From positions 352,001 through 416,000 of the forward strand of contig CP000071.1 of NCBI GenBank assembly GCA_000002445.1: 64,000 nt of DNA. Direction: 5' to 3'. The stretch comes from Trypanosoma brucei. Taxonomy: Eukaryota. Below are positions 20,401-38,227 of this stretch, one piece after another. The translations under genes were made by a program, and so were the position numbers. A model generated the notes under the pieces. It made no database searches. It saw only the letters and a list, made by a program, of their open reading frames with translations, and was not told where the DNA came from. Each line of letters opens with the position of its first letter. Positions within the stretch are counted from its first letter, which is position 1.

Positions 20401-20773
20401 TGCGGTCACTCCATGCAGCTTTAAAAATCTTCCAGAATGTCAGCGGAGCCTCCTCAGGAAGCTCATTCCTCCCATACACAGCACGCCGATTCTCTACAGA
20501 AAAAGAGTCGATGCCATCTGTTATACTCGTGCCAAGTCGTTCGGCAATACCCTCAACGCCGCCAAGTTCCTCGTATAGGGGCTTAGCGTCACCGACGCAA
20601 CTGAACAAGGTGTGAAGCTCTCCCTTAATCCCTATGCCGATACGATCTTCGAGCTCCACCTCCACTGCAACGGACCCATCACTTCTGGTAAGGCCAGTGG
20701 ATAAAAACGCTTGCCTCTCTCGACCGCGGCCGGCAAGTGTACCGTAGTTCGAAGTGTCTTTTGGGGAAATCAT
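17465..20773 (-). CDS. Plasma-membrane-type (PMCA-like) Ca2+-transporting P-type ATPase, paralogue A, which has the private C-terminal half
   Basis: P-type ATPase motifs are present: the phosphorylation site ICSDKTGTLTQN, the TGES-region SVTGEN, the hinge VAVTGDGTNDAPAL, and the TM4 motif VPEGLPLAVT. The track start is GTG at 20776, and the ATG is at 20773 (MISPKD...). The last 320 aa, the two patches shown in Finding 1 and the 3' flank all differ from copies B and C. Confidence 0.9.
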   Translation of the reverse strand: MISPKDTSNYGTLAGRGRERQAFLSTGLTRSDGSVAVEVELEDRIGIGIKGELHTLFSCVGDAKPLYEELGGVEGIAERLGTSITDGIDSFSVENRRAVYGRNELPEEAPLTFWKIFKAAWSDRMIILLTLAACVSLILGLTVPEPGHEKVDYKTGWIEGTAILMAVIAVTSASSIQDYRKELKFRALVEENSAQPISVIRDGHKVTVDVTEIVVGDLVSLSPGLVIPVDGLYVRGLSVVVDESSVTGENDLKKKGAEHPILLSGTVVSTAEDAYILACAVGESSFGGKLLMESRLDGEPRATPLQERLDELAGFIGRIGIGAAVILMSLLSLFYILLVLRGKEELRAKKFLDIFLLCVTIVVVAVPEGLPLAVTIALAYSQSQMQKDNNQVRRLCACETMGNATQICSDKTGTLTQNRMTVVQGYIGMRRFRVSNPGDPSSTVNLEGVSSDAQSLLMLGLALNSSSEKELLPGNVGAESDLLSRWTWRTDKGNKTDQAILDFVDRVLISVPGSCNDKELPHQKLRMTNRSRGFAIFPFTSERKFMTAVVAGADGVVMQYVKGGSDRVLGMCNRYLSSEGREEPLTEEVTEMITAQIRSIAGDANRTIGVAYGRIGTDGAVPEEEPEGPFVWLALLGIQDPLRPEVVDAVRMCQRAGVTVRMCTGDNLDTAVAISRQCGIYNRLRGDLALTGKDFRNLVYDTYGDEANMEKFWPVLDRMMVMGRSQPLDKQLLVLMLMLRGEVVAVTGDGTNDAPALRLANVGFVMRSGTDIAVKSGDIVLLDDNFRSVQRAVVWGRTVNDNIRKFLQLQLSINIASIVVVFVGSFLSAHDMSPLTTVQLLWVNLLMDTLAALALATEQPTEDCLNRGPSSPRAPLVSRRMWLTILTATVVQVVSVLLLTQYGGKWLKAKGKELPTVVFNVFIFFTIFNMFNARKVYDEVNVFEGLFIRSKSFLVIVVCCVGFQVLAVEVLKEFMSCVPLRAEQWIASILIASLTLVFVSVSRLIPVSEPSFEKGAELEDMEPGARRIAVKLAEDVEHHSSASNNVGSYMRFGQRLVARAQWQRVREHVTMRGVSQFWWSRHSHPRERGWRRMSAWCEERIR

Positions 20774-20960
20774 CACTCCCTCAAAACTTTCCCTCCCACT
20801 CGGTCACACTTCGCGCAACCAAACGTTACTTTATCCTGTACTCGCTTTGGGCCACTCAACAACAATCCAGAAATATCACCTACCTGTATCGCAAATGACA
20901 CCTAACGTTATTCTCATTATTTTTCAAAATTGCATTTGATATAATTGTTACAAGTCAATG

Positions 20961-20998
20961 AAGGGAAAGAAAGAGACAGGGAAAGGGAGTGACAGAAG
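20961..20998 (-). promoter_or_regulatory. Polypyrimidine tract (on the minus strand) with downstream AG dinucleotides, a candidate trans-splice acceptor region for ATPase paralogue A
   Basis: The plus strand reads aagggaaagaaagagacagggaaagggagtgacagaag, which is a CT-rich tract on the minus strand about 190 nt upstream of the ATG. AG dinucleotides follow. An identical element occurs upstream of paralogue B. Confidence 0.4.
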
Positions 20999-21425
20999 TG
21001 TTCCTAAGTGGTTAATTGAACATGACTTTTGAGTCACGTAAGGAAAGAAAGGTGAACACAAAAGCATCCACTGGTCTTCCCCCTCCCTTTCTACACCTAA
21101 TATTCCCTAATCGGCCTCTTCCGTTAATATTACCTGCGCGTCACCGAAAGTACAGAAGGGTGAAGTGGGGCCCCTTGCACAGACGTATGCGAACTGCCGG
21201 TTCACAGGCACACCATGAAACCATTAACCTTATCCTGTTTCTTACTTCACACAACAATTTCTCTTACGCTTACTTTCAGTCCGGCTGCTTCATCCTCATG
21301 AAGAAGCAGTTATGCACTTCCGCATTACTTGGTAATATTTGGTTGTTGTTATTGCTCCCCTTCGCTTTCATTTATCACCAATGACCACAGGCTGTTCACT
21401 GTAGAGTTGCTTCTCAGGTACATAC

Positions 21426-22421
21426 CTACAGGTCACGTAGGAGTGATGAAATGAGAAGGGTACCATCGCACAGAGCCTCTAGATGCTGAGCCTGTTCCCT
21501 AAGTTGCACCAGTGCCAACATTGTGTCCACTCCACGTGCGGGGGGTACATTGTTTTCATCTCGCTGGTTTCTGGAAGTTTCCCGACTGAGTTTGCCCTCC
21601 AAATCACTTAAGTTTCGCTGTACAGACTCAAGGAGGGCAACCTTGTAATCAGCCATAGAATCAGAGTGATGTACTGTACTGTTGCTTGGCAACGGTGCGA
21701 TATCAATGCCGTTTAGGCAAAAAAGTTGATAAGCATCCACCTCCACCTCCACCTTCACCTCGCGAAGCACACCTTGCTTGGGGACCGAACACGCACGCAG
21801 AAGCCGTGCTTCTTCCTGCATCCCACTCTTCTTGTCAGTCTTTTTGGTTTTTTTGTTCTTTCTGGAAAAGTCGAGAAATGCATCCGTCGGCACGAACGCA
21901 CGAAGGTACAACTTACCCATTAGGCCGGTACGGAAGGGGTCGTAGACAAGAAGCACACTTGGGTGACCGTCAATTGCCAAGTTCGCCAACCGATCAGCTG
22001 TCACAACCGAGTAGGGATCATTCACACAAGCACTGGAAACAATGAAGTAACCTACGCTATAACTGTCTAGGCACTCCTTACGCAGCATCTCCTTTACTTT
22101 CTCGTACATCTTCTGCTGCTGTTTACTCTCGGCCGTGTCATCCCGCTCATCCTCTGCGTCACCAGAAGCTCCCAGGCTGGGAAGAACACTCGTGATGAGA
22201 ATCGTATCCCCTTGTTGAACTCCACAAAGACGTCCGCCGACGGCACTGTGGCACGTGGCATCCTGCGAGAAGCTGCCGAGATGTGTGAGGGCGGGAAATG
22301 ATATGCGAACTTTCTTCGCTGGCGGCAGTTCCACGTGAGAATCACTATCCTTCGCGAATATCGATTCGCCAGTGGGGGCGTCGTCGGAAACGACCTGAAC
22401 CTGCGGAAAACCGTGAAACAT
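21426..22421 (-). CDS. MPN-domain protein resembling eIF3 subunit h (copy 1 of 2 identical copies)
   Basis: The 331-aa product has a verified ATG. The segment HPSVLLVYDPFRTGLMGKLYLRAFVPT matches the conserved eIF3h/MPN block (human [25 protein letters not shown]). There is an upstream MPN-like core (KKVRISFPALTHLGSFS...GGRLCGVQQGDTILITSVLP and SVGYFIVS). No JAMM His/Asp metal site is present, as expected for eIF3h. Confidence 0.55.
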   Translation of the reverse strand: MFHGFPQVQVVSDDAPTGESIFAKDSDSHVELPPAKKVRISFPALTHLGSFSQDATCHSAVGGRLCGVQQGDTILITSVLPSLGASGDAEDERDDTAESKQQQKMYEKVKEMLRKECLDSYSVGYFIVSSACVNDPYSVVTADRLANLAIDGHPSVLLVYDPFRTGLMGKLYLRAFVPTDAFLDFSRKNKKTKKTDKKSGMQEEARLLRACSVPKQGVLREVKVEVEVDAYQLFCLNGIDIAPLPSNSTVHHSDSMADYKVALLESVQRNLSDLEGKLSRETSRNQRDENNVPPARGVDTMLALVQLREQAQHLEALCDGTLLISSLLRDL

Positions 22422-23581
22422 TTTCGAGCAAGCGGCTCAAACGTGAAGCGATGGACCCTATCGGTGCTTATTTTAATACCTTAAAACCTGGAAGCCAATG
22501 AAGCAGTTTGTGTCCACATGGGGCGACGGCAGATAATAGCAACATTGAAATTGACAAGAAGAATAGGATGAAAGGAAATTTGTAACAATGAGCAAGACAG
22601 AAGAGAAGCTGCGGCATGCACAACTACGACGGTGGACCCATACACCAGCACACGAATCTCTGATAAATCTTGATCAATTTATAATACTCCGTAAACATTT
22701 TCCGCTCCCGAAGCTTCCCGGAGGTTTCGATAATGGCATACCTTAACGTGTCCTGTGCCCTTTCCTTCACCCCTCCGGAGGGTAAGAAAATAAAGCATCA
22801 AACACCAACCATCAAACCTAAAAAGAATAGTAAAATGATGACAAGAGGGGGGATAGTGTTAGGACATTTAAGATTTACACAAGAAGATGAAAACGCTGGT
22901 TGCTGTGAACAGAAAAAAAACAGAAAACGTATAAAATGGGACGAGTGAGCGGAAGCTAAAACAGTCGCTACGCAGCCCCTTCAATTTAAAAAGAGGAGTA
23001 CGCAGAAGAATATGTAAGTGCGAAGCCCATTAGGAGCGTATGATACATAACATATTATGTATGCAAAAAGTAAAATAGCGAAAAATAACTTCTTTTCTCC
23101 TAAAAAAGGGAAAAAGAAAGCCAATGAAAAGAGAGAAGAGAAAAATGAACGGTGTCGTACACATTTTTTGTATCATTTTCTTTTTGATATTCTCTGTTGC
23201 CCCTCCTCGATGTCACGCGGAGCAAAGGGCCCACCATTCTTATGCATCCTCAGCCATCCACTCCAGTCCCTCACATCAACTGTCATACCACCGCAAAACA
23301 GGGACGAAACGCTTCAAATAAAAGATCTGAGAAATAACGAAATGGGGGGGGTGGAAATGATGCGGTAGGGCAGCAACGGTGGTGTTACCAAAAAATGACC
23401 GTGTGGAAGGAATCCACGCCAAGCTTCCGCACCGCAATTTATTATTAGAAAGAACGCAAAATAACAATAAAAGAGCTTACGAACGGGACTGGAGAACTCT
23501 TCATCCGATCCAAACAAATCATTTAGGAGGAAAAAGTTATTAAAAGATGAGGGGTAAGGTCAGGGTATAAAAGACAAACAT

Positions 23582-26500
23582 TCATACCATCCTTAATGTG
23601 TCATAAAGTTGTCGGGTGGAGCCCCGTTTCATATCGCGATCCGTCCATGCGCGGCGGAATGCATTAACAACACGAGGTTTCTTCACATGCTCTGCCTGAA
23701 GTCTACGCCACCGCGACTGCGCACGCAACCGACCCGCAAGAAGCGAAGAGGCGTCACTTGTCCCGTCCGTCTCCCGCTGCCTCTGCTCCGCAGCCACCGA
23801 AACATCTTTGATGAGGCGAGAGGCACTACCGTCGACATTTCTACTATCTGGTATCAGTGCAAACACAGGTTCCCTGATGCTCACCACCCGGCTCAAAATA
23901 CCCACAACAAGTGAAATGGCAGCAATACCGATACTTACACCCCATTGCTTGATCGAAAGGGGACGGACACCCATAAAGTCGTTAAAGGTGCAGATGGCCA
24001 ACACTTGAAACGCAATGCACGAACCGACGACAACAATAAAAAATACCGACCGACCCATCCCTTCAAACACATTAAGTTCTCGGTACAATTTGCGACAATT
24101 TAACATGTGGAATATAGTGCCGAAAACAAAAACGTTGAATAGAAATGTTCGGTGCAAATGCTTGCCATTCTCATCCTCCCCAAAATACTTTCCACCAAAC
24201 GTGAGCACAGAAAAGAAAGCAGTTAGCTGAACTGTGGCAACGGAAAAAATTGTGAACCACATTCGACGTGAGACAAGGGGAGCTCGGGGGGAAGACGGAC
24301 CACGATTTAAGCAATCCTCTGTCGGTTGCTCCGTTGCGAGAGCAGGGGCCGCAAGTGTGTCCATAAGAAGATTTACCCATAACAGCTGTACAGTCGTTAA
24401 CGGTGAAGACTTACCCTCCCTCACGAGGGTACCTACGACGGTTAATGAAAAACACACCAAATTCACCGTGAACTGTAACTGCAGGAACTTGCGGATGTTG
24501 TCATTCACAGTCCGCCCCCAAACAACGGCACGCTGGACGGAACGGAAGTTGTCGTCTAAAAGCACAATATCACCGGACTTCACCGCTATATCCGTGCCAC
24601 TGCGCATCACAAAACCCACATTTGCAAGACGCAGCGCAGGGGCGTCATTTGTCCCATCACCAGTCACAGCAACGACCTCACCACGGAGCATCAGCATCAG
24701 TACGAGCAGTTGCTTGTCCAGAGGCTGCGAACGCCCCATCACCATCATCCGGTCAAGAACAGGCCAGAACTTCTCCATGTTCGCCTCGTCACCATAAGTG
24801 TCATACACAAGGTTGCGGAAGTCCTTCCCAGTGAGCGCAAGATCACCACGCAGTCGATTGTAAATTCCACATTGCCGAGAAATTGCAACGGCTGTGTCGA
24901 GATTGTCACCCGTACACATCCTCACTGTCACTCCCGCACGCTGGCACATTCGCACAGCATCCACAACCTCTGGACGAAGCGGGTCCTGGATGCCTAATAG
25001 TGCAAGCCACACAAATGGTCCCTCGGGTTCCTCCTCGGGAACCGCACCGTCCGTACCGATACGCCCGTATGCCACGCCGATTGTGCGATTTGCGTCCCCC
25101 GCTATTGACCGTATCTGCTCAGTGATCATCTCAGTTACCTCCTCCGTCAGCGGCTCCTCACGACCCTCTGACGACAAGTATCGGTTGCACATGCCAAGCA
25201 CACGATCAGAGCCCCCTTTCACGTACTGCATCACAACTCCATCCGCACCTGCAACCACAGCAGTCATAAACTTCCGTTCGCTCGTAAAAGGAAAGATGGC
25301 AAAGCCACGGCTGCAGTTTGTCATGCGTAACTTCTGGTGTGGAAGCTCCTTGTCATTACAACTACCCGGTACCGATATCAACACGCGATCCACAAAATCC
25401 AATATCGCTTGGTCAGTTTTGTTGCCCTTGTCGGTACGCCACGTCCATCGAGACAGTAAGTCAGACTCAGCTCCCACATTACCTGGTAAAAGCTCCTTCT
25501 CACTCGAACTATTCAGTGCAAGACCAAGCATTAGTAACGACTGTGCATCACTAGACACACCCTCCAGATTAACCGTGGACGAGGGATCTCCGGGATTCGA
25601 GACACGGAACCGCCGCATCCCAATGTAACCTTGTACCACAGTCATACGATTCTGAGTCAGCGTCCCAGTTTTATCACTGCAAATCTGTGTTGCATTGCCC
25701 ATTGTCTCACAAGCACACAAACGCCTCACCTGATTATTGTCCTTCTGCATCTGGCTCTGTGAGTACGCAAGAGCAATCGTCACCACCAATGGCAAGCCCT
25801 CTGGCACTGCAATAACAACAATCGTCACACAAAGTAGGAGAAAGTTCAGGAACTTCTTCGGGTAAAATTGTTGTTTGTTTGTAGCAATTCGCTCAATTTC
25901 GATGATACAAAGTACTATGAAAAAAAGAACGGCGGATATAATTGCAACTCGAGCGATGAAGCTAACTAAGTTTTGCGACCGCTCCTGCAAGGGAGTCGCC
26001 CTCGGTTCACCGTCGAGACGAGATTCCATTAGCAGCTTTCCACCAAAAGAAGACTCACCGACGGCGCACGCAAGAATGTAAGCATCCTCAGCCGTACTCA
26101 CAACAGTCCCAGAAAGTAAGATTGGATGTTCGGCGCCTTTCTTTTTCAGATCATTCTCGCCAGTCACACTCGACTCATCAACAACAACACTCAAACCACG
26201 TACGTATAAACCATCTACAGGGATAACAAGACCCGGTGACAAGGACACAAGATCACCCACAACAATTTCTGTCACATCCACCGTAACCTTGTGACCATCA
26301 CGAATGACGGAGATTGGCTGAGCAGAGTTCTCCTCCACAAGAGCACGGAATTTCAACTCCTTGCGGTAATCCTGAATAGACGATGCTGAGGTTACTGCAA
26401 TCACGGCCATAAGAATGGCGGTGCCCTCTATCCAACCTGTCTTATAGTCAACCTTCTCGTGTCCGGGTTCCGGCACAGTTAACCCGAGGATAAGCGACAC

Positions 26501-26902
26501 ACATGCGGCAAGGGTCAAAAGTATGATCATGCGGTCACTCCATGCAGTTTTAAAAATCTTCCAGAATGTCAGCGGAGCCTCCTCAGGAAGCTCATTCCTC
26601 CCATACACAGCACGCCGATTCTCTACAGAAAAAGAGTCGATGCCATCTGTTATACTCGTGCCAAGTCGTTCGGCAATACCCTCAACGCCGCCAAGTTCCT
26701 CGTATAGGGGCTTAGCGTCACCGACGCAACTGAACAAGGTGTGAAGCTCTCCCTTAATCCCTATGCCGATACGATCTTCGAGCTCCACCTCCACTGCAAC
26801 GGACCCATCACTTCTGGTAAGGCCAGTGGATAAAAACGCTTGCTTCTCTCGACCGCGGCCGGCAAGTGTACCGTAGTTCGAAGTGTCTTTTGGGGAAATC
26901 AT
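23582..26902 (-). CDS. PMCA-like Ca2+-transporting P-type ATPase, paralogue B
   Basis: Same motifs as paralogue A. Its N-terminus is identical to A and its C-terminal half is identical to C. It has private substitutions: KIFKTAW, LAAPALATEQ and RMTNCSRGF. The ATG is at 26902 after a GTG. Confidence 0.9.
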   Translation of the reverse strand: MISPKDTSNYGTLAGRGREKQAFLSTGLTRSDGSVAVEVELEDRIGIGIKGELHTLFSCVGDAKPLYEELGGVEGIAERLGTSITDGIDSFSVENRRAVYGRNELPEEAPLTFWKIFKTAWSDRMIILLTLAACVSLILGLTVPEPGHEKVDYKTGWIEGTAILMAVIAVTSASSIQDYRKELKFRALVEENSAQPISVIRDGHKVTVDVTEIVVGDLVSLSPGLVIPVDGLYVRGLSVVVDESSVTGENDLKKKGAEHPILLSGTVVSTAEDAYILACAVGESSFGGKLLMESRLDGEPRATPLQERSQNLVSFIARVAIISAVLFFIVLCIIEIERIATNKQQFYPKKFLNFLLLCVTIVVIAVPEGLPLVVTIALAYSQSQMQKDNNQVRRLCACETMGNATQICSDKTGTLTQNRMTVVQGYIGMRRFRVSNPGDPSSTVNLEGVSSDAQSLLMLGLALNSSSEKELLPGNVGAESDLLSRWTWRTDKGNKTDQAILDFVDRVLISVPGSCNDKELPHQKLRMTNCSRGFAIFPFTSERKFMTAVVAGADGVVMQYVKGGSDRVLGMCNRYLSSEGREEPLTEEVTEMITEQIRSIAGDANRTIGVAYGRIGTDGAVPEEEPEGPFVWLALLGIQDPLRPEVVDAVRMCQRAGVTVRMCTGDNLDTAVAISRQCGIYNRLRGDLALTGKDFRNLVYDTYGDEANMEKFWPVLDRMMVMGRSQPLDKQLLVLMLMLRGEVVAVTGDGTNDAPALRLANVGFVMRSGTDIAVKSGDIVLLDDNFRSVQRAVVWGRTVNDNIRKFLQLQFTVNLVCFSLTVVGTLVREGKSSPLTTVQLLWVNLLMDTLAAPALATEQPTEDCLNRGPSSPRAPLVSRRMWFTIFSVATVQLTAFFSVLTFGGKYFGEDENGKHLHRTFLFNVFVFGTIFHMLNCRKLYRELNVFEGMGRSVFFIVVVGSCIAFQVLAICTFNDFMGVRPLSIKQWGVSIGIAAISLVVGILSRVVSIREPVFALIPDSRNVDGSASRLIKDVSVAAEQRQRETDGTSDASSLLAGRLRAQSRWRRLQAEHVKKPRVVNAFRRAWTDRDMKRGSTRQLYDTLRMV

Positions 26903-27089
26903 CACTCCCTCAAAACTTTCCCTCCCACTCGGTCACACTTCGCGCAACCAAACGTTACTTTATCCTGTACTCGCTTTGGGCCACTCAACAACAATCCAGA
27001 AATATCACCTACCTGTATCGCAAATGACACCTAACGTTATTCTCATTATTTTTCAAAACTGCATTTGATATAATTGTTACAAGTCAATG

Positions 27090-27127
27090 AAGGGAAAGAA
27101 AGAGACAGGGAAAGGGAGTGACAGAAG
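27090..27127 (-). promoter_or_regulatory. Polypyrimidine tract and AG acceptor candidate upstream of ATPase paralogue B
   Basis: Identical sequence to 20961..20998, a consequence of the tandem duplication. Confidence 0.4.
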
Positions 27128-27554
27128 TGTTCCTAAGTGGTTAATTGAACATGACTTTTGAGTCACGTAAGGAAAGAAAGGTGAACACAAAAGCATCCAC
27201 TGGTCTTCCCCCTCCCTTTCTACACCTAATATTCCCTAATCGGCCTCTTCCGTTAATATTACCTGCGCGTCACCGAAAGTACAGAAGGGTGAAGTGGGGC
27301 CCCTTGCACAGACGTATGCGAACTGCCGGTTCACAGGCACACCATGAAACCATTAACCTTATCCTGTTTCTTACTTCACACAACAATTTCTCTTACGCTT
27401 ACTTTCAGTCCGGCTGCTTCATCCTCATGAAGAAGCAGTTATGCACTTCCGCATTACTTGGTAATATTTGGTTGTTGTTATTGCTCCCCTTCGCTTTCAT
27501 TTATCACCAATGACCACAGGCTGTTCACTGTAGAGTTGCTTCTCAGGTACATAC

Positions 27555-28550
27555 CTACAGGTCACGTAGGAGTGATGAAATGAGAAGGGTACCATCGCAC
27601 AGAGCCTCTAGATGCTGAGCCTGTTCCCTAAGTTGCACCAGTGCCAACATTGTGTCCACTCCACGTGCGGGGGGTACATTGTTTTCATCTCGCTGGTTTC
27701 TGGAAGTTTCCCGACTGAGTTTGCCCTCCAAATCACTTAAGTTTCGCTGTACAGACTCAAGGAGGGCAACCTTGTAATCAGCCATAGAATCAGAGTGATG
27801 TACTGTACTGTTGCTTGGCAACGGTGCGATATCAATGCCGTTTAGGCAAAAAAGTTGATAAGCATCCACCTCCACCTCCACCTTCACCTCGCGAAGCACA
27901 CCTTGCTTGGGGACCGAACACGCACGCAGAAGCCGTGCTTCTTCCTGCATCCCACTCTTCTTGTCAGTCTTTTTGGTTTTTTTGTTCTTTCTGGAAAAGT
28001 CGAGAAATGCATCCGTCGGCACGAACGCACGAAGGTACAACTTACCCATTAGGCCGGTACGGAAGGGGTCGTAGACAAGAAGCACACTTGGGTGACCGTC
28101 AATTGCCAAGTTCGCCAACCGATCAGCTGTCACAACCGAGTAGGGATCATTCACACAAGCACTGGAAACAATGAAGTAACCTACGCTATAACTGTCTAGG
28201 CACTCCTTACGCAGCATCTCCTTTACTTTCTCGTACATCTTCTGCTGCTGTTTACTCTCGGCCGTGTCATCCCGCTCATCCTCTGCGTCACCAGAAGCTC
28301 CCAGGCTGGGAAGAACACTCGTGATGAGAATCGTATCCCCTTGTTGAACTCCACAAAGACGTCCGCCGACGGCACTGTGGCACGTGGCATCCTGCGAGAA
28401 GCTGCCGAGATGTGTGAGGGCGGGAAATGATATGCGAACTTTCTTCGCTGGCGGCAGTTCCACGTGAGAATCACTATCCTTCGCGAATATCGATTCGCCA
28501 GTGGGGGCGTCGTCGGAAACGACCTGAACCTGCGGAAAACCGTGAAACAT
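27555..28550 (-). CDS. MPN-domain protein resembling eIF3 subunit h (copy 2, identical to copy 1)
   Basis: The translation is identical to that of 21426..22421. Confidence 0.55.
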   Translation of the reverse strand: MFHGFPQVQVVSDDAPTGESIFAKDSDSHVELPPAKKVRISFPALTHLGSFSQDATCHSAVGGRLCGVQQGDTILITSVLPSLGASGDAEDERDDTAESKQQQKMYEKVKEMLRKECLDSYSVGYFIVSSACVNDPYSVVTADRLANLAIDGHPSVLLVYDPFRTGLMGKLYLRAFVPTDAFLDFSRKNKKTKKTDKKSGMQEEARLLRACSVPKQGVLREVKVEVEVDAYQLFCLNGIDIAPLPSNSTVHHSDSMADYKVALLESVQRNLSDLEGKLSRETSRNQRDENNVPPARGVDTMLALVQLREQAQHLEALCDGTLLISSLLRDL

Positions 28551-29715
28551 TTTCGAGCAAGCGGCTCAAACGTGAAGCGATGGACCCTATCGGTGCTTCT
28601 CTCAACATACGCACCTAAAACCCGGAAGCCAATGAAGCAGTTTGTGTCCACATGGGGCGACGGCAGATAATAGCAACATTGAAATTGACAAGAAGAATAG
28701 GATGAAAGGAAATTTGTAACAATGAGCAAGACAGAAGAGAAGCTGCGGCATGCACAACTACGACGGTGGACCCATACACCAGCACACGAATCTCTGATAA
28801 ATCTTGATCAATTTATCATACTCCGTAAACATTTTCCGCTCCCGAAGCTTCCCGGAGGTTTCGATAATGGCATACCTTAACGTGTCCTGTGCCCTTTCCT
28901 TCACCCCTCCGGAGGGTAAGAAAATAAAGCATCAAACACCAACCATCAAACCTAAAAAGAATAGTAAAATGATGACAAGAGGGGGGATAGTGTTAGGACA
29001 TTTAAGATTTACACAAGAAGATGAAAACGCTGGTTGCTGTGAACAGAAAAAAAACAGAAAACGTATAAAATGGGACGAGTGAGCGGAAGCTAAAACAGTC
29101 GCTACGCAGCCCCTTCAATTTAAAAAGAGGAGTACGCAGAAGAATATGTAAGTGCGAAGCCCATTAGGAGCGTATGATACATAACATATTATGTATGCAA
29201 AAAGTAAAATAGCGAAAAATAACTTCTTTTCTCCTAAAAAAGGGAAAAAGAAAGCCAATGAAAAGAGAGAAGAGAAAAATGAACGGTGTCGTACACATTT
29301 TTTGTATCATTTTCTTTTTGATATTCTCTGTTGCCCCTCCTCGATGTCACGCGGAGCAAAGGGCCCACCATTCTTATGCATCCTCAGCCATCCACTCCAG
29401 TCCCTCACATCAACTGTCATACCACCGCAAAACAGGGACGAAACGCTTCAAATAAAAGATCTGAGAAATAACGAAATGGGGGGGGTGGAAATGATGCGGT
29501 AGGGCAGCAACGGTGGTGTTACCAAAAAATGACCGTGTGGAAGGAATCCACGCCAAGCTTCCGCACCGCAATTTATTATTAGAAAGAACGCAAAATAACA
29601 ATAAAAGAGCTTACGAACGGGACTGGAGAACTCTTCATCCGATCCAAACAAATCATTTAGGAGGAAAAAGTTATTAAAAGATGAGGGGTAAGGTCAGGGT
29701 ATAAAAGACAAACAT

Positions 29716-32700
29716 TCATACCATCCTTAATGTGTCATAAAGTTGTCGGGTGGAGCCCCGTTTCATATCGCGATCCGTCCATGCGCGGCGGAATGCATTA
29801 ACAACACGAGGTTTCTTCACATGCTCTGCCTGAAGTCTACGCCACCGCGACTGCGCACGCAACCGACCCGCAAGAAGCGAAGAGGCGTCACTTGTCCCGT
29901 CCGTCTCCCGCTGCCTCTGCTCCGCAGCCACCGAAACATCTTTGATGAGGCGAGAGGCACTACCGTCGACATTTCTACTATCTGGTATCAGTGCAAACAC
30001 AGGTTCCCTGATGCTCACCACCCGGCTCAAAATACCCACAACAAGTGAAATGGCAGCAATACCGATACTTACACCCCATTGCTTGATCGAAAGGGGACGG
30101 ACACCCATAAAGTCGTTAAAGGTGCAGATGGCCAACACTTGAAACGCAATGCACGAACCGACGACAACAATAAAAAATACCGACCGACCCATCCCTTCAA
30201 ACACATTAAGTTCTCGGTACAATTTGCGACAATTTAACATGTGGAATATAGTGCCGAAAACAAAAACGTTGAATAGAAATGTTCGGTGCAAATGCTTGCC
30301 ATTCTCATCCTCCCCAAAATACTTTCCACCAAACGTGAGCACAGAAAAGAAAGCAGTTAGCTGAACTGTGGCAACGGAAAAAATTGTGAACCACATTCGA
30401 CGTGAGACAAGGGGAGCTCGGGGGGAAGACGGACCACGATTTAAGCAATCCTCTGTCGGTTGCTCCGTTGCGAGAGCGAGCGCCGCAAGTGTGTCCATAA
30501 GAAGATTTACCCATAACAGCTGTACAGTCGTTAACGGTGAAGACTTACCCTCCCTCACGAGGGTACCTACAACAGTTACTAGAAAAGAAACAACGTTCAC
30601 GGTTAATTGCAGCTGCAGGAACTTGCGGATGTTGTCATTCACAGTCCGCCCCCAAACAACGGCACGCTGGACAGAACGGAAGTTGTCGTCTAAAAGCACA
30701 ATATCACCGGACTTCACCGCTATATCCGTGCCACTGCGCATCACAAAACCCACATTTGCAAGACGCAGCGCAGGGGCGTCATTTGTCCCATCACCAGTCA
30801 CAGCAACGACCTCACCACGGAGCATCAGCATCAGTACGAGCAGTTGCTTGTCCAGAGGCTGCGAACGCCCCATCACCATCATCCGGTCAAGAACAGGCCA
30901 GAACTTCTCCATGTTCGCCTCGTCACCATAAGTGTCATACACAAGGTTGCGGAAGTCCTTCCCAGTGAGCGCAAGATCACCACGCAGTCGATTGTAAATT
31001 CCACATTGCCGAGAAATTGCAACGGCTGTGTCGAGATTGTCACCCGTACACATCCTCACTGTCACTCCCGCACGCTGGCACATTCGCACAGCATCCACAA
31101 CCTCTGGACGAAGCGGGTCCTGGATGCCTAATAGTGCAAGCCACACAAATGGTCCCTCGGGTTCCTCCTCGGGAACCGCACCGTCCGTACCGATACGCCC
31201 GTATGCCACGCCGATTGTGCGATTTGCGTCCCCCGCTATTGACCGTATCTGCTCAGTGATCATCTCAGTTACCTCCTCCGTCAGCGGCTCCTCACGACCC
31301 TCTGACGACAAGTATCGGTTGCACATGCCAAGCACACGATCAGAGCCCCCTTTCACGTACTGCATCACAACTCCATCCGCACCTGCAACCACAGCAGTCA
31401 TAAACTTCCGTTCGCTCGTAAAAGGAAAGATGGCAAAGCCACGGCTGCGGTTTGTCATGCGTAACTTCTGGTGTGGAAGCTCCTTGTCATTACAACTACC
31501 CGGTACCGATATCAACACGCGATCCACAAAATCCAATATCGCTTGGTCAGTTTTGTTGCCCTTGTCGGTACGCCACGTCCATCGAGACAGTAAGTCAGAC
31601 TCAGCTCCCACATTACCTGGTAAAAGCTCCTTCTCACTCGAACTATTCAGTGCAAGACCAAGCATTAGTAACGACTGTGCATCACTAGACACACCCTCCA
31701 GATTAACCGTGGACGAGGGATCTCCGGGATTCGAGACACGGAACCGCCGCATCCCAATGTAACCTTGTACCACAGTCATACGATTCTGAGTCAGCGTCCC
31801 AGTTTTATCACTGCAAATCTGTGTTGCATTGCCCATTGTCTCACAAGCACACAAACGCCTCACCTGATTATTGTCCTTCTGCATCTGGTTCTGTGAGTAC
31901 GCAAGAGCAATCGTCACCGCCAACGGCAAGCCCTCTGGCACTGCGACGACAACAATCGTCACACAAAGTAGGAGAAAGTTCAGGAACTTCTTCGGGTAAA
32001 ATTGTTGTTTGTTTGTAGCAATTCGCTCAATTTCGATGATACAAAGTACTATGAAAAGCAGAACGGCGGATATAATTGCAACTCGACCAATAAAAGCGGC
32101 CAGCTCATCCAACCGCTCCTGCAAGGGAGTCGCCCTCGGTTCACCGTCGAGACGAGATTCCATTAGCAGCTTTCCACCAAAAGAAGACTCACCGACGGCG
32201 CACGCAAGAATGTAAGCATCCTCAGCCGTACTCACAACAGTCCCAGAAAGTAAGATTGGATGTTCGGCGCCTTTCTTTTTCAGATCATTCTCGCCAGTCA
32301 CACTCGACTCATCAACAACAACACTCAAACCACGTACGTATAAACCATCTACAGGGATAACAAGACCCGGTGACAAGGACACAAGATCACCCACAACAAT
32401 TTCTGTCACATCCACCGTAACCTTGTGACCATCACGAATGACGGAGATTGGCTGAGCAGAGTTCTCCTCCACAAGAGCACGGAATTTCAACTCCTTGCGG
32501 TAATCCTGAATAGACGATGCTGAGGTTACTGCAATCACGGCCATAAGAATGGCGGTGCCCTCTATCCAACCTGTCTTATAGTCAACCTTCTCGTGTCCGG
32601 GTTCCGGCACAGTTAACCCGAGGATAAGCGACACACATGCGGCAAGGGTCAAAAGTATGATCATGCGGTCACTCCATGCAGCTTTTAAAATCTTCCAGAA

Positions 32701-32958
32701 TGTCAGCGGAGCCTCCTCAGGAAGCTCATTCCTCCCATACACAGCACGCCGATTCTCTACAGAAAAAGAGTCGATGCCATCTGTTATACTCGTGCCAAGT
32801 CGTTCGGCAATACCCTCAACGCCGCCAAGTTCCTCGTATAGGGGCTTTGGATCTTCATTGCAAGTAAATAACTTTTGCAGGACGCTTTTTGTTTCATTGC
32901 CATTGTTCTCCGGTGATACTTGTGTCTTATGTTCCTGCGGTGACTCAAGTGGATGCAT
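29716..32958 (-). CDS. PMCA-like Ca2+-transporting P-type ATPase, paralogue C, which has the private N-terminus
   Basis: The ATG was verified at 32956-32958. The first 38 aa (MHPLESPQEHKTQVSPENNGNETKSVLQKLFTCNEDP) and the 5' flank are unrelated to A and B. The nucleotide breakpoint is at about 32847. The rest of the gene is near-identical to B, with A-like patches such as LDELAAFIGR. Confidence 0.9.
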   Translation of the reverse strand: MHPLESPQEHKTQVSPENNGNETKSVLQKLFTCNEDPKPLYEELGGVEGIAERLGTSITDGIDSFSVENRRAVYGRNELPEEAPLTFWKILKAAWSDRMIILLTLAACVSLILGLTVPEPGHEKVDYKTGWIEGTAILMAVIAVTSASSIQDYRKELKFRALVEENSAQPISVIRDGHKVTVDVTEIVVGDLVSLSPGLVIPVDGLYVRGLSVVVDESSVTGENDLKKKGAEHPILLSGTVVSTAEDAYILACAVGESSFGGKLLMESRLDGEPRATPLQERLDELAAFIGRVAIISAVLLFIVLCIIEIERIATNKQQFYPKKFLNFLLLCVTIVVVAVPEGLPLAVTIALAYSQNQMQKDNNQVRRLCACETMGNATQICSDKTGTLTQNRMTVVQGYIGMRRFRVSNPGDPSSTVNLEGVSSDAQSLLMLGLALNSSSEKELLPGNVGAESDLLSRWTWRTDKGNKTDQAILDFVDRVLISVPGSCNDKELPHQKLRMTNRSRGFAIFPFTSERKFMTAVVAGADGVVMQYVKGGSDRVLGMCNRYLSSEGREEPLTEEVTEMITEQIRSIAGDANRTIGVAYGRIGTDGAVPEEEPEGPFVWLALLGIQDPLRPEVVDAVRMCQRAGVTVRMCTGDNLDTAVAISRQCGIYNRLRGDLALTGKDFRNLVYDTYGDEANMEKFWPVLDRMMVMGRSQPLDKQLLVLMLMLRGEVVAVTGDGTNDAPALRLANVGFVMRSGTDIAVKSGDIVLLDDNFRSVQRAVVWGRTVNDNIRKFLQLQLTVNVVSFLVTVVGTLVREGKSSPLTTVQLLWVNLLMDTLAALALATEQPTEDCLNRGPSSPRAPLVSRRMWFTIFSVATVQLTAFFSVLTFGGKYFGEDENGKHLHRTFLFNVFVFGTIFHMLNCRKLYRELNVFEGMGRSVFFIVVVGSCIAFQVLAICTFNDFMGVRPLSIKQWGVSIGIAAISLVVGILSRVVSIREPVFALIPDSRNVDGSASRLIKDVSVAAEQRQRETDGTSDASSLLAGRLRAQSRWRRLQAEHVKKPRVVNAFRRAWTDRDMKRGSTRQLYDTLRMV

Positions 32959-33804: not shown

Positions 33805-35865
33805 TTAGGCAACGCCGCACTTACCCAGCGCTTGAAGTTCCACAACACGGCGCTTCAGTTTTACACATTCACCAGCCACGTTTAAAAGTTCCGACTGCAA
33901 GTTAGCCATAGACGCACGAAAAACTTGTATCACCTTGCAAAATATTTCATCCCTGCGGTTTCCCTCAGCATGCCATCCGTCAAGAGAGGAAACAAGCACC
34001 GTTTCCTGCTTATCAGATTGTGACAACGCTGCACCAACAGCGTCCATCCACTCAACCACTTTAGAAGTAAGAGGCAAAGATGCAGAGTTGCCACACGCCA
34101 CACCCTCAGCAACTTCATCATGGCTTCGCTGAGCCTCAGCCAATTGTGCCTTCAGTTGCTCCACCTCTTGCTGTAAGGCATGCATGGCCTCCTCCCTAGA
34201 CTCCATAACTTCACGACATTTTACCTCACTAGCCACAGCAACTTCATCATGGCTTCGCTGAGCCTCAGCCAATTGTGCCTTCAGTTGCTCCACTTCTTGC
34301 TGTAAGGCATGCATGGCCTCCTCCCTAGACTCCATAACTTCACGACATTTTACCTCACTAGCCACAGCAACTTCATCATGGCTTCGCTGAGCCTCAGCCA
34401 ATTGTGCCTTCAGTTGCTCCACCTCTTGCTGTAAGGCATGCATGGCCTCCTCCCTAGACTCCATAACTTCACGACATTTTACCTCACTAGCCACAGCAAC
34501 TTCATCATGGCTTCGCTGAGCCTCAGCCAATTGTGCCTTCAGTTGCTCCACTTCTTGCTGTAAGGCATGCATGGCCTCCTCCCTAGACTCCATAACTTCA
34601 CGACATTTTACCTCACTAGCCACAGCAACTTCATCATGGCTTCGCTGAGCCTCAGCCAATTGTGCCTTCAGTTGCTCCACCTCTTGCTGTAAGGCATGCA
34701 TGGCCTCCTCCCTAGACTCCATAACTTCACGACATTTTACCTCACTAGCCACAGCAACTTCATCATGGCTTCGCTGAGCCTCAGCCAATTGTGCCTTCAG
34801 TTGCTCCACCTCTTGCTGTAAGGCATGCATGGCCTCCTCCCTAGACTCCATAACTTCACGACATTTTACCTCACTAGCCACAGCAACTTCATCATGGCTT
34901 CGCTGAGCCTCAGCCAATTGTGCCTTCAGTTGCTCCACTTCTTGCTGTAAGGCATGCATGGCCTCCTCCCTAGACTCCATAACTTCACGACATTTTACCT
35001 CACTAGCCACAGCAACTTCATCATGGCTTCGCTGAGCCTCAGCCAATTGTGCCTTCAGTTGCTCCACTTCTTGCTGTAAGGCATGCATGGCCTCCTCCCT
35101 AGACTGGGTCTCCAGGTCCGAGTCTTGATACCGGGAAAGTTCATTCCGCAGATCCTGAATTGTTTTTCTGTCTTGCTCCACCACAGTTCGCACTCGATCC
35201 TGCCACTGCTCGACCTTTTCCTTCACTTCACGATCTATGCTTTCCCTTATGGCTTCGGCACTTGGACCTCCAGAACTTGCAGTGTATTGTTGCGCGGTTA
35301 TTTGCTGACTTTCTCGGAGGCGCTGAAGTTCGTTTTCCAGTTGATTAATACGGTTTTTATGGTTTTCACGCTCGAGTCTGTCATACTCTCTCAACTCCCT
35401 TACTCTCTCCTGAACAGAGGCCTCTAGCACCTTGGCTTGTGCGGCGACGATTCCATCCGACTGTGTGAGCACTGTGCTTCCTGTTTCCCTTAGCGTCTGA
35501 AACTCTCTTGTCTTTTCCTCCAACTGCTCACGTAAAGCCGTTATTAATTCCTCACTTCGACTCATATCCTGAGCAAATGTCACGCGCTCCTGCTCTATCT
35601 CTTGCTGCAATTGCAACAAGGAGTGTTGGAGCTGCGACACCTCAGTCGTTGTTACTTCGCCTGAATCCACGGCGGCTGCTGGGCACACCTTTTCATTAGA
35701 CGATTGATTGGTGATGTCCTTCACAAGCTCCTCCAGGTGGGCAATATACTGGGTTTTCTCACGGTTTGTTATGCTTTGTTTCTTGGCAAGTTCAATGAGT
35801 TCTTCCCTCGTCATCAATTCCAAGTCGACAGTGCGAGTGCGACGCGGTGCAAGAGGCGCAGACAT
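33805..35865 (-). CDS. Coiled-coil protein with internal 43-aa tandem repeats (SREEAMHALQQEVEQLKAQLAEAQRSHDEVAVASEVKCREVME, about 7.7 copies)
   Basis: The 686-aa ORF has a verified ATG at 35863-35865. The N-terminal 254 aa are unique coiled-coil sequence, followed by the repeats and then a unique roughly 80-aa C-terminus. Confidence 0.65.
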   Translation of the reverse strand: MSAPLAPRRTRTVDLELMTREELIELAKKQSITNREKTQYIAHLEELVKDITNQSSNEKVCPAAAVDSGEVTTTEVSQLQHSLLQLQQEIEQERVTFAQDMSRSEELITALREQLEEKTREFQTLRETGSTVLTQSDGIVAAQAKVLEASVQERVRELREYDRLERENHKNRINQLENELQRLRESQQITAQQYTASSGGPSAEAIRESIDREVKEKVEQWQDRVRTVVEQDRKTIQDLRNELSRYQDSDLETQSREEAMHALQQEVEQLKAQLAEAQRSHDEVAVASEVKCREVMESREEAMHALQQEVEQLKAQLAEAQRSHDEVAVASEVKCREVMESREEAMHALQQEVEQLKAQLAEAQRSHDEVAVASEVKCREVMESREEAMHALQQEVEQLKAQLAEAQRSHDEVAVASEVKCREVMESREEAMHALQQEVEQLKAQLAEAQRSHDEVAVASEVKCREVMESREEAMHALQQEVEQLKAQLAEAQRSHDEVAVASEVKCREVMESREEAMHALQQEVEQLKAQLAEAQRSHDEVAVASEVKCREVMESREEAMHALQQEVEQLKAQLAEAQRSHDEVAEGVACGNSASLPLTSKVVEWMDAVGAALSQSDKQETVLVSSLDGWHAEGNRRDEIFCKVIQVFRASMANLQSELLNVAGECVKLKRRVVELQALGKCGVA
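34106..35105 (-). repeat. 129-bp near-perfect tandem repeat (about 7.7 copies) inside the coiled-coil CDS
   Basis: The period was measured from recurring caattgtgcc at 34141, 34270, 34399 and onward. The only visible polymorphism is synonymous: ccacCtcttg versus ccacTtcttg (gag/gaa Glu). Confidence 0.9.
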
Positions 35866-37675
35866 TCGTGCAAGCAGTTATTTGAGGGGGAAAAAAACAG
35901 CAAAATGAAACGTAAAGATCTCTTTGCTAATGCCTTTGGAATGAAAGAACGCGTGGAACCTTTACCAAGCACCGGTACAACTTTAAACACAATCTTTATT
36001 GCTAAGGGTTTTCGAGCCTTTAACTGTGCTCGCGAGTGCGTAATCCATTTTACATTACGTCGGACCAGCGGCGGGCGAGAAGCGACGATAACAAATGGGA
36101 AAATGCATGCTCTGAGTAGTCCACTTAAAGTGCAGAGGTGTCAACAGGTTCAGTCTCTTCAGGCATTCGGGGGGAAGGAAAGGGAAATTACTCATTAGAA
36201 CTCAGCAGTCTGTGAAGTACGAAAAAAAAGGGGGCCTTCCTCATCTTTTCTGTGCTTTGCCTCAGCGTTTTCTCGGCAATTAATGCCTAGAAAGTAATTA
36301 ATGTGGCGTCACACTGTACCACAACCCTAAGACCGTACCACCACTGCCACTGCGCCCTCTCTTAGAGGACCAAGGGTGAAACCACACCCATCACCGTCGC
36401 CAATACGCTGCGGTTGGCAGCAGCTGAAGTATTATTACCCTTATCCTTGCGTATGTTGTCCCGGGTTGCATGTACATCACCCTTCCCGGCTGGGATTGCG
36501 ACAAGAGAGAAACTAACTCTCTCCATTTGCAGCCGGAGGTCGAGCTTCACGAAGGCAGTAAGTGGTCTGCTACCGGGACGAGGACTCGTCGTAACTTCCC
36601 TCTGCCCATCATCGGGTAGAGCCAACTGCCGACTGTCACTGACGCGTGACCGCTTATTGGAACGGTACTCCGCACCATCCATGGACTGATGCCCCCCCCA
36701 AGGCGACAGCCGCCACAGTGAAGACTCGAGCCTCGGAGTCCAGTTCACCGCCGACGTGCGCCTGTAATAAAACAACAACCCCGTCCCTGGTGTTGCCATC
36801 GATGTTGTCGCTACGAGGACCACCACGAAGACTGAAATGGGCACCAGTTAACTGCAATGTTGTGCTCCCAACAGGGTATGACACCTCCACCTTCTTGGAG
36901 TGGGCGGCACATTCTGTAGGCGGGGAAGAGAGCTTATTCTTATTCGATGTATCCTTCTTAGATTCGGTGTGACCGGATGCGAAAATATTCTGTGGGGAGG
37001 CAATCGTTAACCGTGCCACGACAGTTCGCACCATCCAAACCGTGAAGGAAAACAAAGTGATCAAAGGAAGAACGGAATAGTCACAAGTCTCCGGTACTTC
37101 CTCCTCTTTCCCTAACAGTCTTTCTCTCTTTTGCACTTTCAACTTAATCCCTTTCCTCTTTTCTGTCGTCCGTCTACCCTCTCACACTTCAAGCGCCTTC
37201 CCTACTCTTGACCCACTATTCTCGTGGAAAGGCAGTAGATAATGGCAGCAGAAGCAGTAGCAAAGGTACGAAATTTGTACGGTGTTCGAATCAAAAGGTA
37301 AACACAAGAGGTGAAAATGCAACAGGAGGGCGTCAATGACCTGTACGTACCCCAGCTGGGCCCGGTGCCGGCTAGCTGCACCCTCAGTTATAAAATGTAG
37401 ACTCATCCTTTTACCTCACTTAGCCAAGACAAAAACGCACCTCTTATACTTAAATTTTCACGTCATGAATCCCTCCCCCACGGCACATCATACATAAACA
37501 CATGCCACCCGCGTTAGCCAACGTTCAGAATAACCTAATCCGTCACAGTATGGGCAAAAAAAGAAAAGGAAGCGGGAGCCGTCAATCACAGCACCTCTGG
37601 GAGAAGTGAAAGGGGGAACACGGTGGAGGAGCAGCGCTCCACTATCCGACATACCCACATGACTATTAGCGCGGG

Positions 37676-38227
37676 TTAATTTCCCTTCCCTTTCTTCTCC
37701 GCGTCGATGCGGCTCCTTTTATTGCCTCCATCGTTACCGTTTGCCTTCCCCTTTGAACTCTTGGGTTTCCCACCGTCTCCTTTGGGTTTCTCTCCCCCTC
37801 TTGACCGCCGCGATGCCATCTCCATGCCGTCACTGGAATCCTCTTCCTCCTCATCCCTATCCTCATCGCTGGAGTCTCCCTTGTCGGCGTTATATCGGTC
37901 TTCATCACTCTCGAAATACCCAGTTAGGTGGACCGTAGGACCTTCACCACTACAACCCACAGTTGAAGAGGGAACAAGAGTAAAGGAAACCTTCCGCGAG
38001 AAAATGTGATGCAGGGGAACGTAATATAATTCTCTGTCCGCGGAAAGGGTGCAAAGGGCTAACCGAGTCGGTAAATCATGGCTCTGCGCGTACAGTGTGA
38101 CGGCACCTGGCACAATGCTTGTGAGTGAACAGTGCGTCAACACCAAAGAGCTATCTGGTGGCATCGGTGGGGAAATGGCAACCTGGTCGGGCCGGAGCTC
38201 CAAGCCAAAGAAGCAGTGAAGCGACAT
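37676..38227 (-). CDS. Hypothetical protein, 183 aa, with an acidic DE/S-rich stretch followed by a basic K/G-rich tail
   Basis: The ATG was verified at 38225-38227. Just upstream lie a minus-strand polypyrimidine run (ttttgtttttgtttgtcac) and AG dinucleotides. The composition is partly low-complexity, so this call is tentative. Confidence 0.35.
   Translation of the reverse strand: MSLHCFFGLELRPDQVAISPPMPPDSSLVLTHCSLTSIVPGAVTLYAQSHDLPTRLALCTLSADRELYYVPLHHIFSRKVSFTLVPSSTVGCSGEGPTVHLTGYFESDEDRYNADKGDSSDEDRDEEEEDSSDGMEMASRRSRGGEKPKGDGGKPKSSKGKANGNDGGNKRSRIDAEKKGKGN

Follow-up and report, generated by a model that had tools for sequence, protein, structure and literature searches.

The window analysed here is a 64,000 nt stretch of Trypanosoma brucei DNA. 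Its minus strand carries a gene whose 686 aa product (Table 1) was identified by exact-sequence look-up as XP_846958.1 (UniProt Q57VN3) of T. brucei brucei TREU927, annotated as "hypothetical protein, conserved". The neighbouring genes suggest that its gene number is Tb927.8.1210: the nearby Ca-ATPases are Tb927.8.1160/1180/1200, the eIF3h genes (331 aa) are Tb927.8.1170/1190, Tb927.8.1220 carries a pseudogene annotation, and the qPCR primers of Tb927.8.1230 map to positions 37880-38139 of the window. The order of genes at the locus (nucleoplasmin-like gene, small hypothetical gene, repeat gene, Ca-ATPase) is maintained across the species compared, namely T. b. gambiense, T. congolense, T. cruzi, T. 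theileri, T. rangeli and T. melophagium. No mention of Tb927.8.1210, its protein accessions or the guessed identifiers of Leishmania orthologues was found in the searched literature, and the searched supplements of the TrypTag paper also lacked the identifiers of the neighbouring genes.

Table 1. The repeat gene and its features, in window coordinates.
Feature	Position	Strand	Details
Gene, 686-aa acidic all-helical protein	33805..35865	(-)	ORF + exact-sequence look-up
N-terminal helix, residues ~8-55	35701..35844	(-)	RTRxVDLxxMxREELIEIAKKQxxxIREKxxxIxxLEELVxxxT
Two copies of a ~40-aa motif, residues ~146-185 and ~205-245	35131..35430	(-)	V[LI]ExAVxxKVxxWxxRVxxxxxxDxxxIxxLxxxL
Tandem array, in-frame, head-to-tail	34107..35105	(-)	7.74 x 129 bp; residues 254-586, 49% of coding sequence
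Variable site, 8 copies	34165 + k x 129, k = 0..7 (34165..35068)	(-)	Third base, Glu codon 12 of unit, GAA/GAG
C-terminal tail, ~100 aa	33808..34106	(-)	Conserved terminal helix E[CN]xxLxRRVxEL

The central part of the gene is a tandem array with a period of 129 bp, or 43 codons, and it runs through the reading frame without a stop or frameshift. Tandem Repeats Finder reports a period of 129, 7.7 copies, 99% matches, 0% indels and a score of 1970, and a scan of the whole window found this to be the sole large array. The 43 aa unit is SREEAMHALQQEVEQLKAQLAEAQRSHDEVAVASEVKCREVME, and the final, partial unit consists of its first 32 aa. When the units were compared base by base on the plus strand, units 1-7 differed only at unit position 59, and the partial eighth unit agreed with the others over 96 bases. 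Because position 59 corresponds to the third base of a Glu codon, its GAA/GAG variation is synonymous; followed along the gene from its 5′ end, the units carry A,A,G,G,A,G,A,G on the coding strand. All seven complete units are identical as protein. An array this near to perfect is beyond the reach of chance. An earlier note on this DNA had described about 7.7 identical 129 bp coding repeats with a single synonymous C/T site in the pattern C,T,C,T,C,C,T,T, and both the repeat analysis and the base-by-base comparison agree with it, the latter exactly. Its end coordinate for the array (35105) is also correct, while its start (34106) lies one base too early.

The assemblies of TREU927 and T. b. 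gambiense DAL972 give 7.74 units (686 aa) and 4.74 units (557 aa), respectively, counts that are subject to consensus polishing and collapse, which can inflate homogeneity or alter copy number. The DAL972 protein equals that of TREU927 minus exactly three units, and both lengths fit 385 + n x 43 aa. The two arrays also differ in their synonymous variants. Site 2 of the unit is T in all eight TREU927 units but C in four of the five DAL972 units, the first unit retaining T, and the A variant at the GAA/GAG site (site 35) is found in 4/8 TREU927 units versus 0/5 in DAL972. Across both arrays there are four variable sites, every one a third-position synonymous transition, although synonymous sites make up only 26 of the 129 positions of the unit. 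Since all four are synonymous, purifying selection appears to act on the amino acid sequence of the unit in T. brucei.

Searches for homologues with the whole protein were swamped by the repeat, and orthologues were recovered with the N-terminal part and a de-repeated profile. The T. brucei, T. cruzi, T. rangeli and T. theileri/T. melophagium lineages share a syntenic array of 129 bp period, with 7.4 copies in T. cruzi CL Brener, 4.4 in T. cruzi BCY84, 2.4 in T. cruzi marinkellei, 7.4 in T. melophagium and at least 1.9 in T. rangeli. Complete T. cruzi alleles from six assemblies are 515, 516, 559, 644, 731 and 774 aa long, equivalent to 472/473 + n x 43 with n = 1, 1, 2, 4, 6 and 7 full units at the assembly level. 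Two lengths occur within single T. cruzi strains, 559 and 731 aa in Berenice and 516 and 774 aa in the CL lineage. T. congolense has the terminal partial unit alone, with no tandem repeat and without the 11 aa 'b' part of the unit. Across strains and haplotypes, the number of full units ranges from 0 to 7.

Five draft assemblies are broken or gapped inside the array. The T. equiperdum contig begins within it, the T. rangeli contig terminates in it, T. theileri has a gap of 1250 N there, and in two T. cruzi assemblies the repeat gene is split into partial genes. Several orthologues have been deposited split or truncated at the array, so gene models at this place are unreliable in draft assemblies. 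If five drafts fail here, then counts elsewhere could also be wrong, and the differences in copy number might be artefacts of a fixed array that was collapsed or mis-joined to varying extents. We consider this very unlikely. At only 611 bp the DAL972 array is short, and synonymous markers that distinguish its units should allow it to be resolved. The T. cruzi alleles, each complete and in frame, are separated in length by exact multiples of 43 aa. Differing lengths inside the Berenice and CL strains also argue against it, as does T. congolense, where collapse would have kept at least one full unit, including the 'b' part.

Units within an array are 96-100% identical, compared to 29-37% between T. 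brucei arrays and those of T. cruzi or T. melophagium, yet the period is still 43 aa. In T. cruzi, strain-specific residues occur in every unit of one array, TLTREVQ in CL Brener and ERAFGAT in BCY84. These array-wide residues, together with the identity values and the opposite states of site 2 in the two T. brucei arrays, bear out the claim of the earlier note that the repeats undergo ongoing concerted evolution. Its expectation that copy number varies between strains was likewise upheld at assembly level, by the TREU927 and DAL972 counts and by the 43 aa steps of T. cruzi, and its caution that short-read assemblies might misrepresent the array was justified by the five broken drafts.

Judged from these sequences, homogenisation appears to be recent but the array itself ancient, rather than a recent expansion. 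An alternative is that one ancestral segment expanded independently in separate lineages, T. congolense representing the ancestral state, so that there was no ancient, concertedly evolving array. The single partial unit of T. congolense fits such a history, as do the Leishmaniinae orthologues, in which no more than one or two diverged copies occur, spaced 50 or 78 aa apart and not 43, and the array edges, which are offset by about 5-6 residues in T. brucei relative to T. cruzi. It would, however, require near-identical breakpoints to have been chosen three or more times, and at least three deep Trypanosoma lineages carry gapless, same-register units of exactly 129 bp in the same segment of the protein. 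Independent expansion is therefore improbable, and an old array that is continually homogenised is the preferred reading.

Misaligned homologous recombination between units probably both alters copy number and homogenises the units. The possible routes include unequal exchange between sister chromatids or alleles, gene conversion, single-strand annealing and replication slippage. Such events could reduce an array of the form a(ba)n to one 'a' alone, as T. congolense has.

Outside the array, conservation across the family is highest in the N-terminal helix, which has invariant columns in an alignment of 11 trypanosomatid orthologues. It also has the highest AlphaFold2 confidence in the protein (pLDDT blocks of 87-90), and it is a candidate partner-binding or targeting head. 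The pair of ~40 aa motifs upstream of the young array is an older, diverged internal repeat. Its two copies match each other in T. cruzi marinkellei (pairwise BLASTP, E = 2e-9) and more weakly, with a gap, in T. brucei (E = 5e-4).

Pfam searches with the whole protein, with its parts outside the repeat and with the orthologues returned only short matches fitting coiled-coil composition (including HU-CCDC81_bac_2, Pox_A_type_inc, FliK, CENP-F_leu_zip and Filament), and no family was assigned. The few matches above the cut-off owe this only to multiplication of the score by the repeat, and no individual domain stretch is significant. Two precomputed assignments, PF28337 NNF2_middle and PF18175, are both flagged 'faint' and were rejected. 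A profile search of the PDB gave only generic coiled coils, BICD2, SMC, M protein and myosin among them, and a Foldseek search of the PDB with the AlphaFold2 model found no match with E <= 0.001, the best being helical hairpins of Vipp1/PspA (E ~0.09). Some Leishmania orthologues are named 'Kinetoplast-associated protein-like' in UniRef, but this is an automatic name only. Kinetoplast-associated proteins are small, strongly basic, Lys/Ala-rich and DNA-binding, a description that does not fit a protein with a length of 686 aa, a pI of 4.87 and 138 acidic versus 85 basic residues.

The array is predicted to be helical. AlphaFold2 places helices at residues 203-364 and 375-579, although the model is a low-confidence monomer (pLDDT 68, pTM 0.21), and a count of residues shows neither Gly nor Pro in the 333 aa of the array. 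Heptad scoring, by a crude in-house scheme and not a calibrated predictor such as COILS or MARCOIL, found the array to be heptad-rich. Since 43 = 6 x 7 + 1, each unit moves the heptad register on by one, and the best register across successive units is 0,1,2,3,4,5,6,0. The scores are weak over about 15 residues in every unit (HDEVAVASEVKCREV), where the register shifts. The earlier note had called the unit a complete coiled-coil module, the number of which would set the length of the rod; the helical prediction and the richness in heptads support this in part, but completeness does not hold, as an uninterrupted coiled coil calls for a whole number of heptads and 43 residues do not divide by 7. 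Taken together, the array is very probably an in-frame coding minisatellite in a kinetoplastid-specific, acidic, all-α-helical protein of coiled-coil type.

If the helix were continuous, each unit would add 43 helical residues, or about 6.4 nm, which would give the central helical segment a length of around 49 nm in TREU927, compared with 30 nm in DAL972 and 5 nm in T. congolense. It would be flanked by the conserved N-terminal head and the conserved C-terminal helix. Each unit could instead form a discrete helical hairpin or small bundle, like beads on a string, in which case copy number would set the count of domains and not the length. The weak-heptad stretch with its register shift in each unit is compatible with this, as is the one hairpin break inside the array in the AlphaFold2 model. 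That break (residues 365-374) is one which identical units should not show selectively, and it is best read as the monomer folding onto itself. The modelled helix is unbroken across about seven of the eight unit junctions, and the lack of Gly and Pro also speaks against hairpins, to which we give little credence. A continuous or nearly continuous helical rod is the more plausible form of the segment.

The number of units varies so widely within and between species that the rod is probably a spacer, the length of which is tolerated rather than precisely set, a reading taken from the variation alone. A more specific proposal is that the 43-residue period (six heptads plus a skip) is a structural requirement kept across Trypanosoma, and that the array acts as a modular molecular ruler in a kinetoplastid-specific tether or cytoskeletal linker, with unit number (0-7) altering cellular spacing between strains. 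The heptad register is restored after seven units (7 x 43 = 301 = 43 heptads), and the largest arrays of three lineages all end at 7.4-7.7 units, both of which fit a ruler. The proposal is nonetheless highly speculative, with a very low probability of being correct.

T. theileri and T. melophagium, which are regarded as non-pathogenic, carry the array too. This is a difficulty for the suggestion that the repeats are kept mainly as a multivalent B-cell epitope, with unit number reflecting host immunity and not mechanics. The protein is acidic and helical, with no signal peptide or surface feature found in XP_846958.1, and serological data on it were not found in the searched literature. A role as a tandem-repeat antigen nevertheless draws on the very high Tandem Repeats Finder score and on a precedent, since such antigens are a class described for trypanosomatids and reports such as PMC3808341 and PMC4363025 describe trypanosome tandem-repeat proteins, for example GM6, as serodiagnostic antigens. 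It is unlikely as the main reason for the repeats, but would be compatible with a coding minisatellite in a helical protein, which we continue to prefer.

The locus offers a length marker for T. brucei typing that can be sized by PCR, and the orthologue could serve the same purpose in T. cruzi. It also provides a natural allelic series, from 0 to 7 modules in a conserved helical protein, usable for testing whether rod length matters. General concepts are unchanged, as both hypervariable coding minisatellites and coding repeats that evolve in concert are already well known in trypanosomes.

Among these known systems, MS42, CRAM and 292 are hypervariable coding minisatellites used for T. brucei strain typing (MacLeod et al. 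1999, via PMC2481433); according to the latter, parental stocks are heterozygous for all three, and allele sizes are read from PCR products on agarose gels. The present array resembles them in being a tandem array within a T. brucei gene that varies in length between stocks or strains, and no match to it was found among these typing markers in the searched literature. It differs in its long unit (129 bp), in its genus-wide conservation and in that its copy-number polymorphism is documented here by assembly comparison alone.

Long, near-perfect, in-frame repeats in intracellular and largely helical or structural proteins are shared with GM6, MARP and the repetitive antigens of T. cruzi, and arrays of the GM6/MARP class are likewise troublesome in genome assembly. 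Their units are of other lengths, 68 aa in GM6 and 38 aa in MARP, compared to 43 aa here. Long coiled-coil rods with skip residues, such as the myosin II rod, are similar in having a heptad helix with regular +1 register shifts. In the array, unlike the myosin II rod, a skip comes once in every 43 residues as a consequence of the repetition of the entire module. Profile matches to myosin, SMC and BICD2 are weak and compositional, with marginal E-values, and homology to these coiled coils is not detectable. The closest parallel in evolutionary behaviour is the concerted evolution of tandem coding repeats generally, where identity within arrays also far exceeds that between species, variants become fixed by lineage, and an edge unit can escape homogenisation, as did the first unit of DAL972. 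The mechanism is no different, and the array is a textbook case.

Tandem Repeats Finder detected a single large array in the window, with a period of 129 bp, no indels and a score of 1970. Base-by-base comparison showed that units 1–7 differ only at unit position 59 (+ strand), and that the eighth has 96 matching bases before it diverges. From unit to unit, position 59 reads C,T,C,T,C,C,T,T, exactly as in the earlier note, which had described near-identical units with one C/T site. The array lies in the coding strand of a 686-aa ORF, of which it makes up 49%. The unit is in frame and corresponds to 43 codons: SREEAMHALQQEVEQLKAQLAEAQRSHDEVAVASEVKCREVME. Its one variable site falls at the third position of Glu codon 12 (GAA/GAG) and is synonymous, so the protein sequence is identical in all complete units.

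By exact-sequence look-up, the protein is T. brucei brucei TREU927 XP_846958.1 / Q57VN3 ('hypothetical protein, conserved'), and its gene is carried by a 2.48-Mb chromosome. The window has its large ORFs exclusively on the minus strand, the arrangement one expects of a trypanosome polycistron. Neighbouring genes include an ETF-ubiquinone oxidoreductase, a nucleoplasmin-like gene (published Tb927.8.1230 qPCR primers map inside it), the annotated pseudogene Tb927.8.1220, which is a frameshifted ORF pair, and three tandem PMCA-type Ca-ATPases (Tb927.8.1160/1180/1200 in the literature) with interleaved 331-aa genes (Tb927.8.1170/1190, eIF3h, in the literature). Since the neighbours are assigned to Tb927.8.1200,.1220 and.1230, the repeat gene should be Tb927.8.1210, by elimination rather than direct look-up.

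Positions of features (window coordinates unless another locus is named) and sizes of 129-bp arrays
Feature	Position	Strand	Units	Unit-to-unit match
AT-rich stretch	6001..8000			
Ca-ATPase/eIF3h triplication	17465..32958	minus		
ORF of repeat gene	33805..35865	minus		
Array, TREU927	34107..35105	minus (coding)	7.7	99%
Older internal repeat, V[LI]ExAVxxK[LV]xxW[KQ]ERVKxxxxxDxxxIxxLxxxL	35131..35430	minus		
Same motif, T. cruzi marinkellei protein (P0006)	residues about 176-220, 258-300			
Tb927.8.1220 ORF pair	36362..37142	minus		
TREU927 frameshift in Tb927.8.1220	near 36694-36701			
Nucleoplasmin-like gene	37676..38227			
AT-rich stretch	58001..62000			
Array, T. cruzi CL Brener	L007 3534..4493		7.4	99%
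Array, T. melophagium	L008 3563..4510		7.4	97%
Array, T. cruzi BCY84			4.4	99%
Array, T. cruzi marinkellei			2.4	99%
Array, T. rangeli			at least 1.9	96%
Start of T. equiperdum contig CZPT02001285.1	L003 1..60			

The triplicated Ca-ATPase/eIF3h unit has start-to-start spacings of 6129 and 6134 bp, with some stretches 99–100% identical between copies, and is a second, larger-scale homogenised tandem duplication adjoining the repeat gene. Tb927.8.1220 is flanked by the repeat gene and the nucleoplasmin-like gene. Its counterpart in T. b. gambiense is an intact 223-aa ORF, and intact orthologues occur in T. congolense and T. cruzi marinkellei; the TREU927 frameshift is either a strain-specific pseudogene or a sequencing error in the reference. 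The two AT-rich stretches (GC 0.36–0.39 versus about 0.50 elsewhere) lack any large ORF; they represent long intergenic DNA in the minus-strand polycistron.

The earlier note expected copy number to vary between strains, and at the assembly level it does. T. b. gambiense DAL972 DNA carries 4.74 units at the same position, compared with 7.7 in TREU927, and its orthologue, at 557 aa, is shorter by exactly three units (129 aa). The length of either protein equals 385 + n × 43, where n is the number of full units. The T. cruzi alleles (strains and haplotypes) are 515, 516, 559, 644, 731 and 774 aa, or 472/473 + n × 43 with n = 1, 1, 2, 4, 6 and 7. The TREU927 and DAL972 arrays together show four variable sites, all third-position synonymous transitions, and only 26 of the 129 sites in the unit are synonymous. 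In the flanking coding sequence (1056 nt) five codons differ, four of them non-synonymously. Purifying selection therefore appears to act on the amino-acid sequence of the unit, perhaps more strongly than on the flanks, the numbers being small. Site 2 is T in all eight TREU927 units and C in four of five DAL972 units, the remaining T being confined to the first, edge unit, and the A variant at site 35 occurs in 4/8 TREU927 units versus none in DAL972. This distribution is the signature of homogenisation after the lineages split. Likewise, the Arg in TLTREVQ is fixed in every unit of CL Brener, and the Phe in ERAFGAT in every unit of BCY84, in keeping with the ongoing concerted evolution suggested previously.

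A profile combining the T. congolense orthologue with the T. brucei ends, stripped of repeats, picked up orthologues throughout the trypanosomatids, with synteny to the nucleoplasmin-like gene and Ca-ATPase kept. The 43-aa spacing is also present in T. theileri, and the Trypanosoma units align gap-free with their register unchanged. Identity is 96–100% within arrays. Between arrays it is 29–37% for T. brucei versus T. cruzi or T. melophagium and 43–46% for T. cruzi versus T. melophagium, about the same divergence as in the rest of the protein (33% identity, T. brucei versus T. cruzi marinkellei). The T. congolense IL3000 orthologue has no tandem repeat, only one 32-aa segment equivalent to the T. 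brucei terminal partial unit, which is what an array a(ba)n (a, 32 aa; b, 11 aa) leaves when recombined down to 'a'. In Leishmaniinae orthologues the one or two copies are diverged and spaced differently. Most economically, the array would already have existed before the main Trypanosoma lineages separated, been kept uniform and changed in size ever since by misaligned recombination, and been lost in T. congolense. Independent lineage-specific expansions sharing one period are unlikely, as near-identical breakpoints would be required repeatedly.

The expectation that draft assemblies mishandle the array was borne out. The T. equiperdum contig with the 3′ end of the gene (1347 bp) begins inside the last partial unit, its first base directly following the A/G variable site, as would be expected from assembly-graph branching at the sole inter-unit difference. 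In T. theileri a 1250-N gap has matching repeat sequence at both edges, and annotation divides the gene into two partial ones. The T. rangeli contig stops within the array, and split partial genes ending or beginning in the repeat occur in two assemblies of T. cruzi, TcCL non-Esmeraldo and TcG.

The protein is acidic (pI 4.9), and Pro and Gly are absent from the 333-aa array. An AlphaFold2 monomer, run with 11 orthologues, was almost all helix (203–364 and 375–579) at low global confidence (pLDDT 68, pTM 0.21); the lone break at 365–374 most likely reflects the monomer folded back on itself. By our heptad scoring, each unit has about 28 residues with a strong a/d pattern followed by about 15 that are weaker, and the best register moves +1 per unit (0,1,...,6,0) because 43 = 6 × 7 + 1. 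The earlier description of a complete coiled-coil module thus holds for the predicted helical, heptad-rich character, but the unit lacks a whole number of heptads and has a built-in skip. As for the related proposal that repeat number sets rod length, a continuous helix would gain about 6.4 nm per unit, giving array lengths of roughly 49 nm (TREU927), 30 nm (DAL972) and 5 nm (T. congolense). The register is back at its start after exactly seven units (301 residues = 43 heptads), and the largest arrays in three lineages (TREU927, CL Brener and T. melophagium) have 7.4–7.7 units; this shared maximum may reflect chance, a limit of about 1 kb imposed by assembly, or constraint.

Conservation in the family peaks in the N-terminal helix (residues about 8–55). 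Pfam, PDB sequence and Foldseek searches gave no family assignment, matching only compositional coiled-coils or helical hairpins. Upstream of the young array, a diverged and older motif of about 40 aa occurs in two or three copies (pair E = 2e-9 in T. cruzi marinkellei, weaker in T. brucei), so internal duplication has enlarged the protein more than once. In UniRef, some entries call the Leishmania orthologues (P0025, P0027, P0029) 'Kinetoplast-associated protein-like protein'. Kinetoplast-associated proteins are small and basic, unlike this acidic, 686-aa, all-helical protein, so the label looks automatically transferred.

Overall, the earlier observation was correct and its interpretation largely right; comparison adds the great age and genus-wide occurrence of the array, its range of 0 to 7 full units and the heptad skip inside the 43-aa module. 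Its importance is modest, chiefly as a typing marker, a caveat for gene annotation and a natural length series for later functional study. The literature searched gave no function or localisation data for the gene, and no prior description of a hypervariable coding minisatellite in it. The array belongs to a known kind, the hypervariable coding minisatellites of T. brucei such as MS42, CRAM and 292, markers in long use, as cited in PMC2481433.
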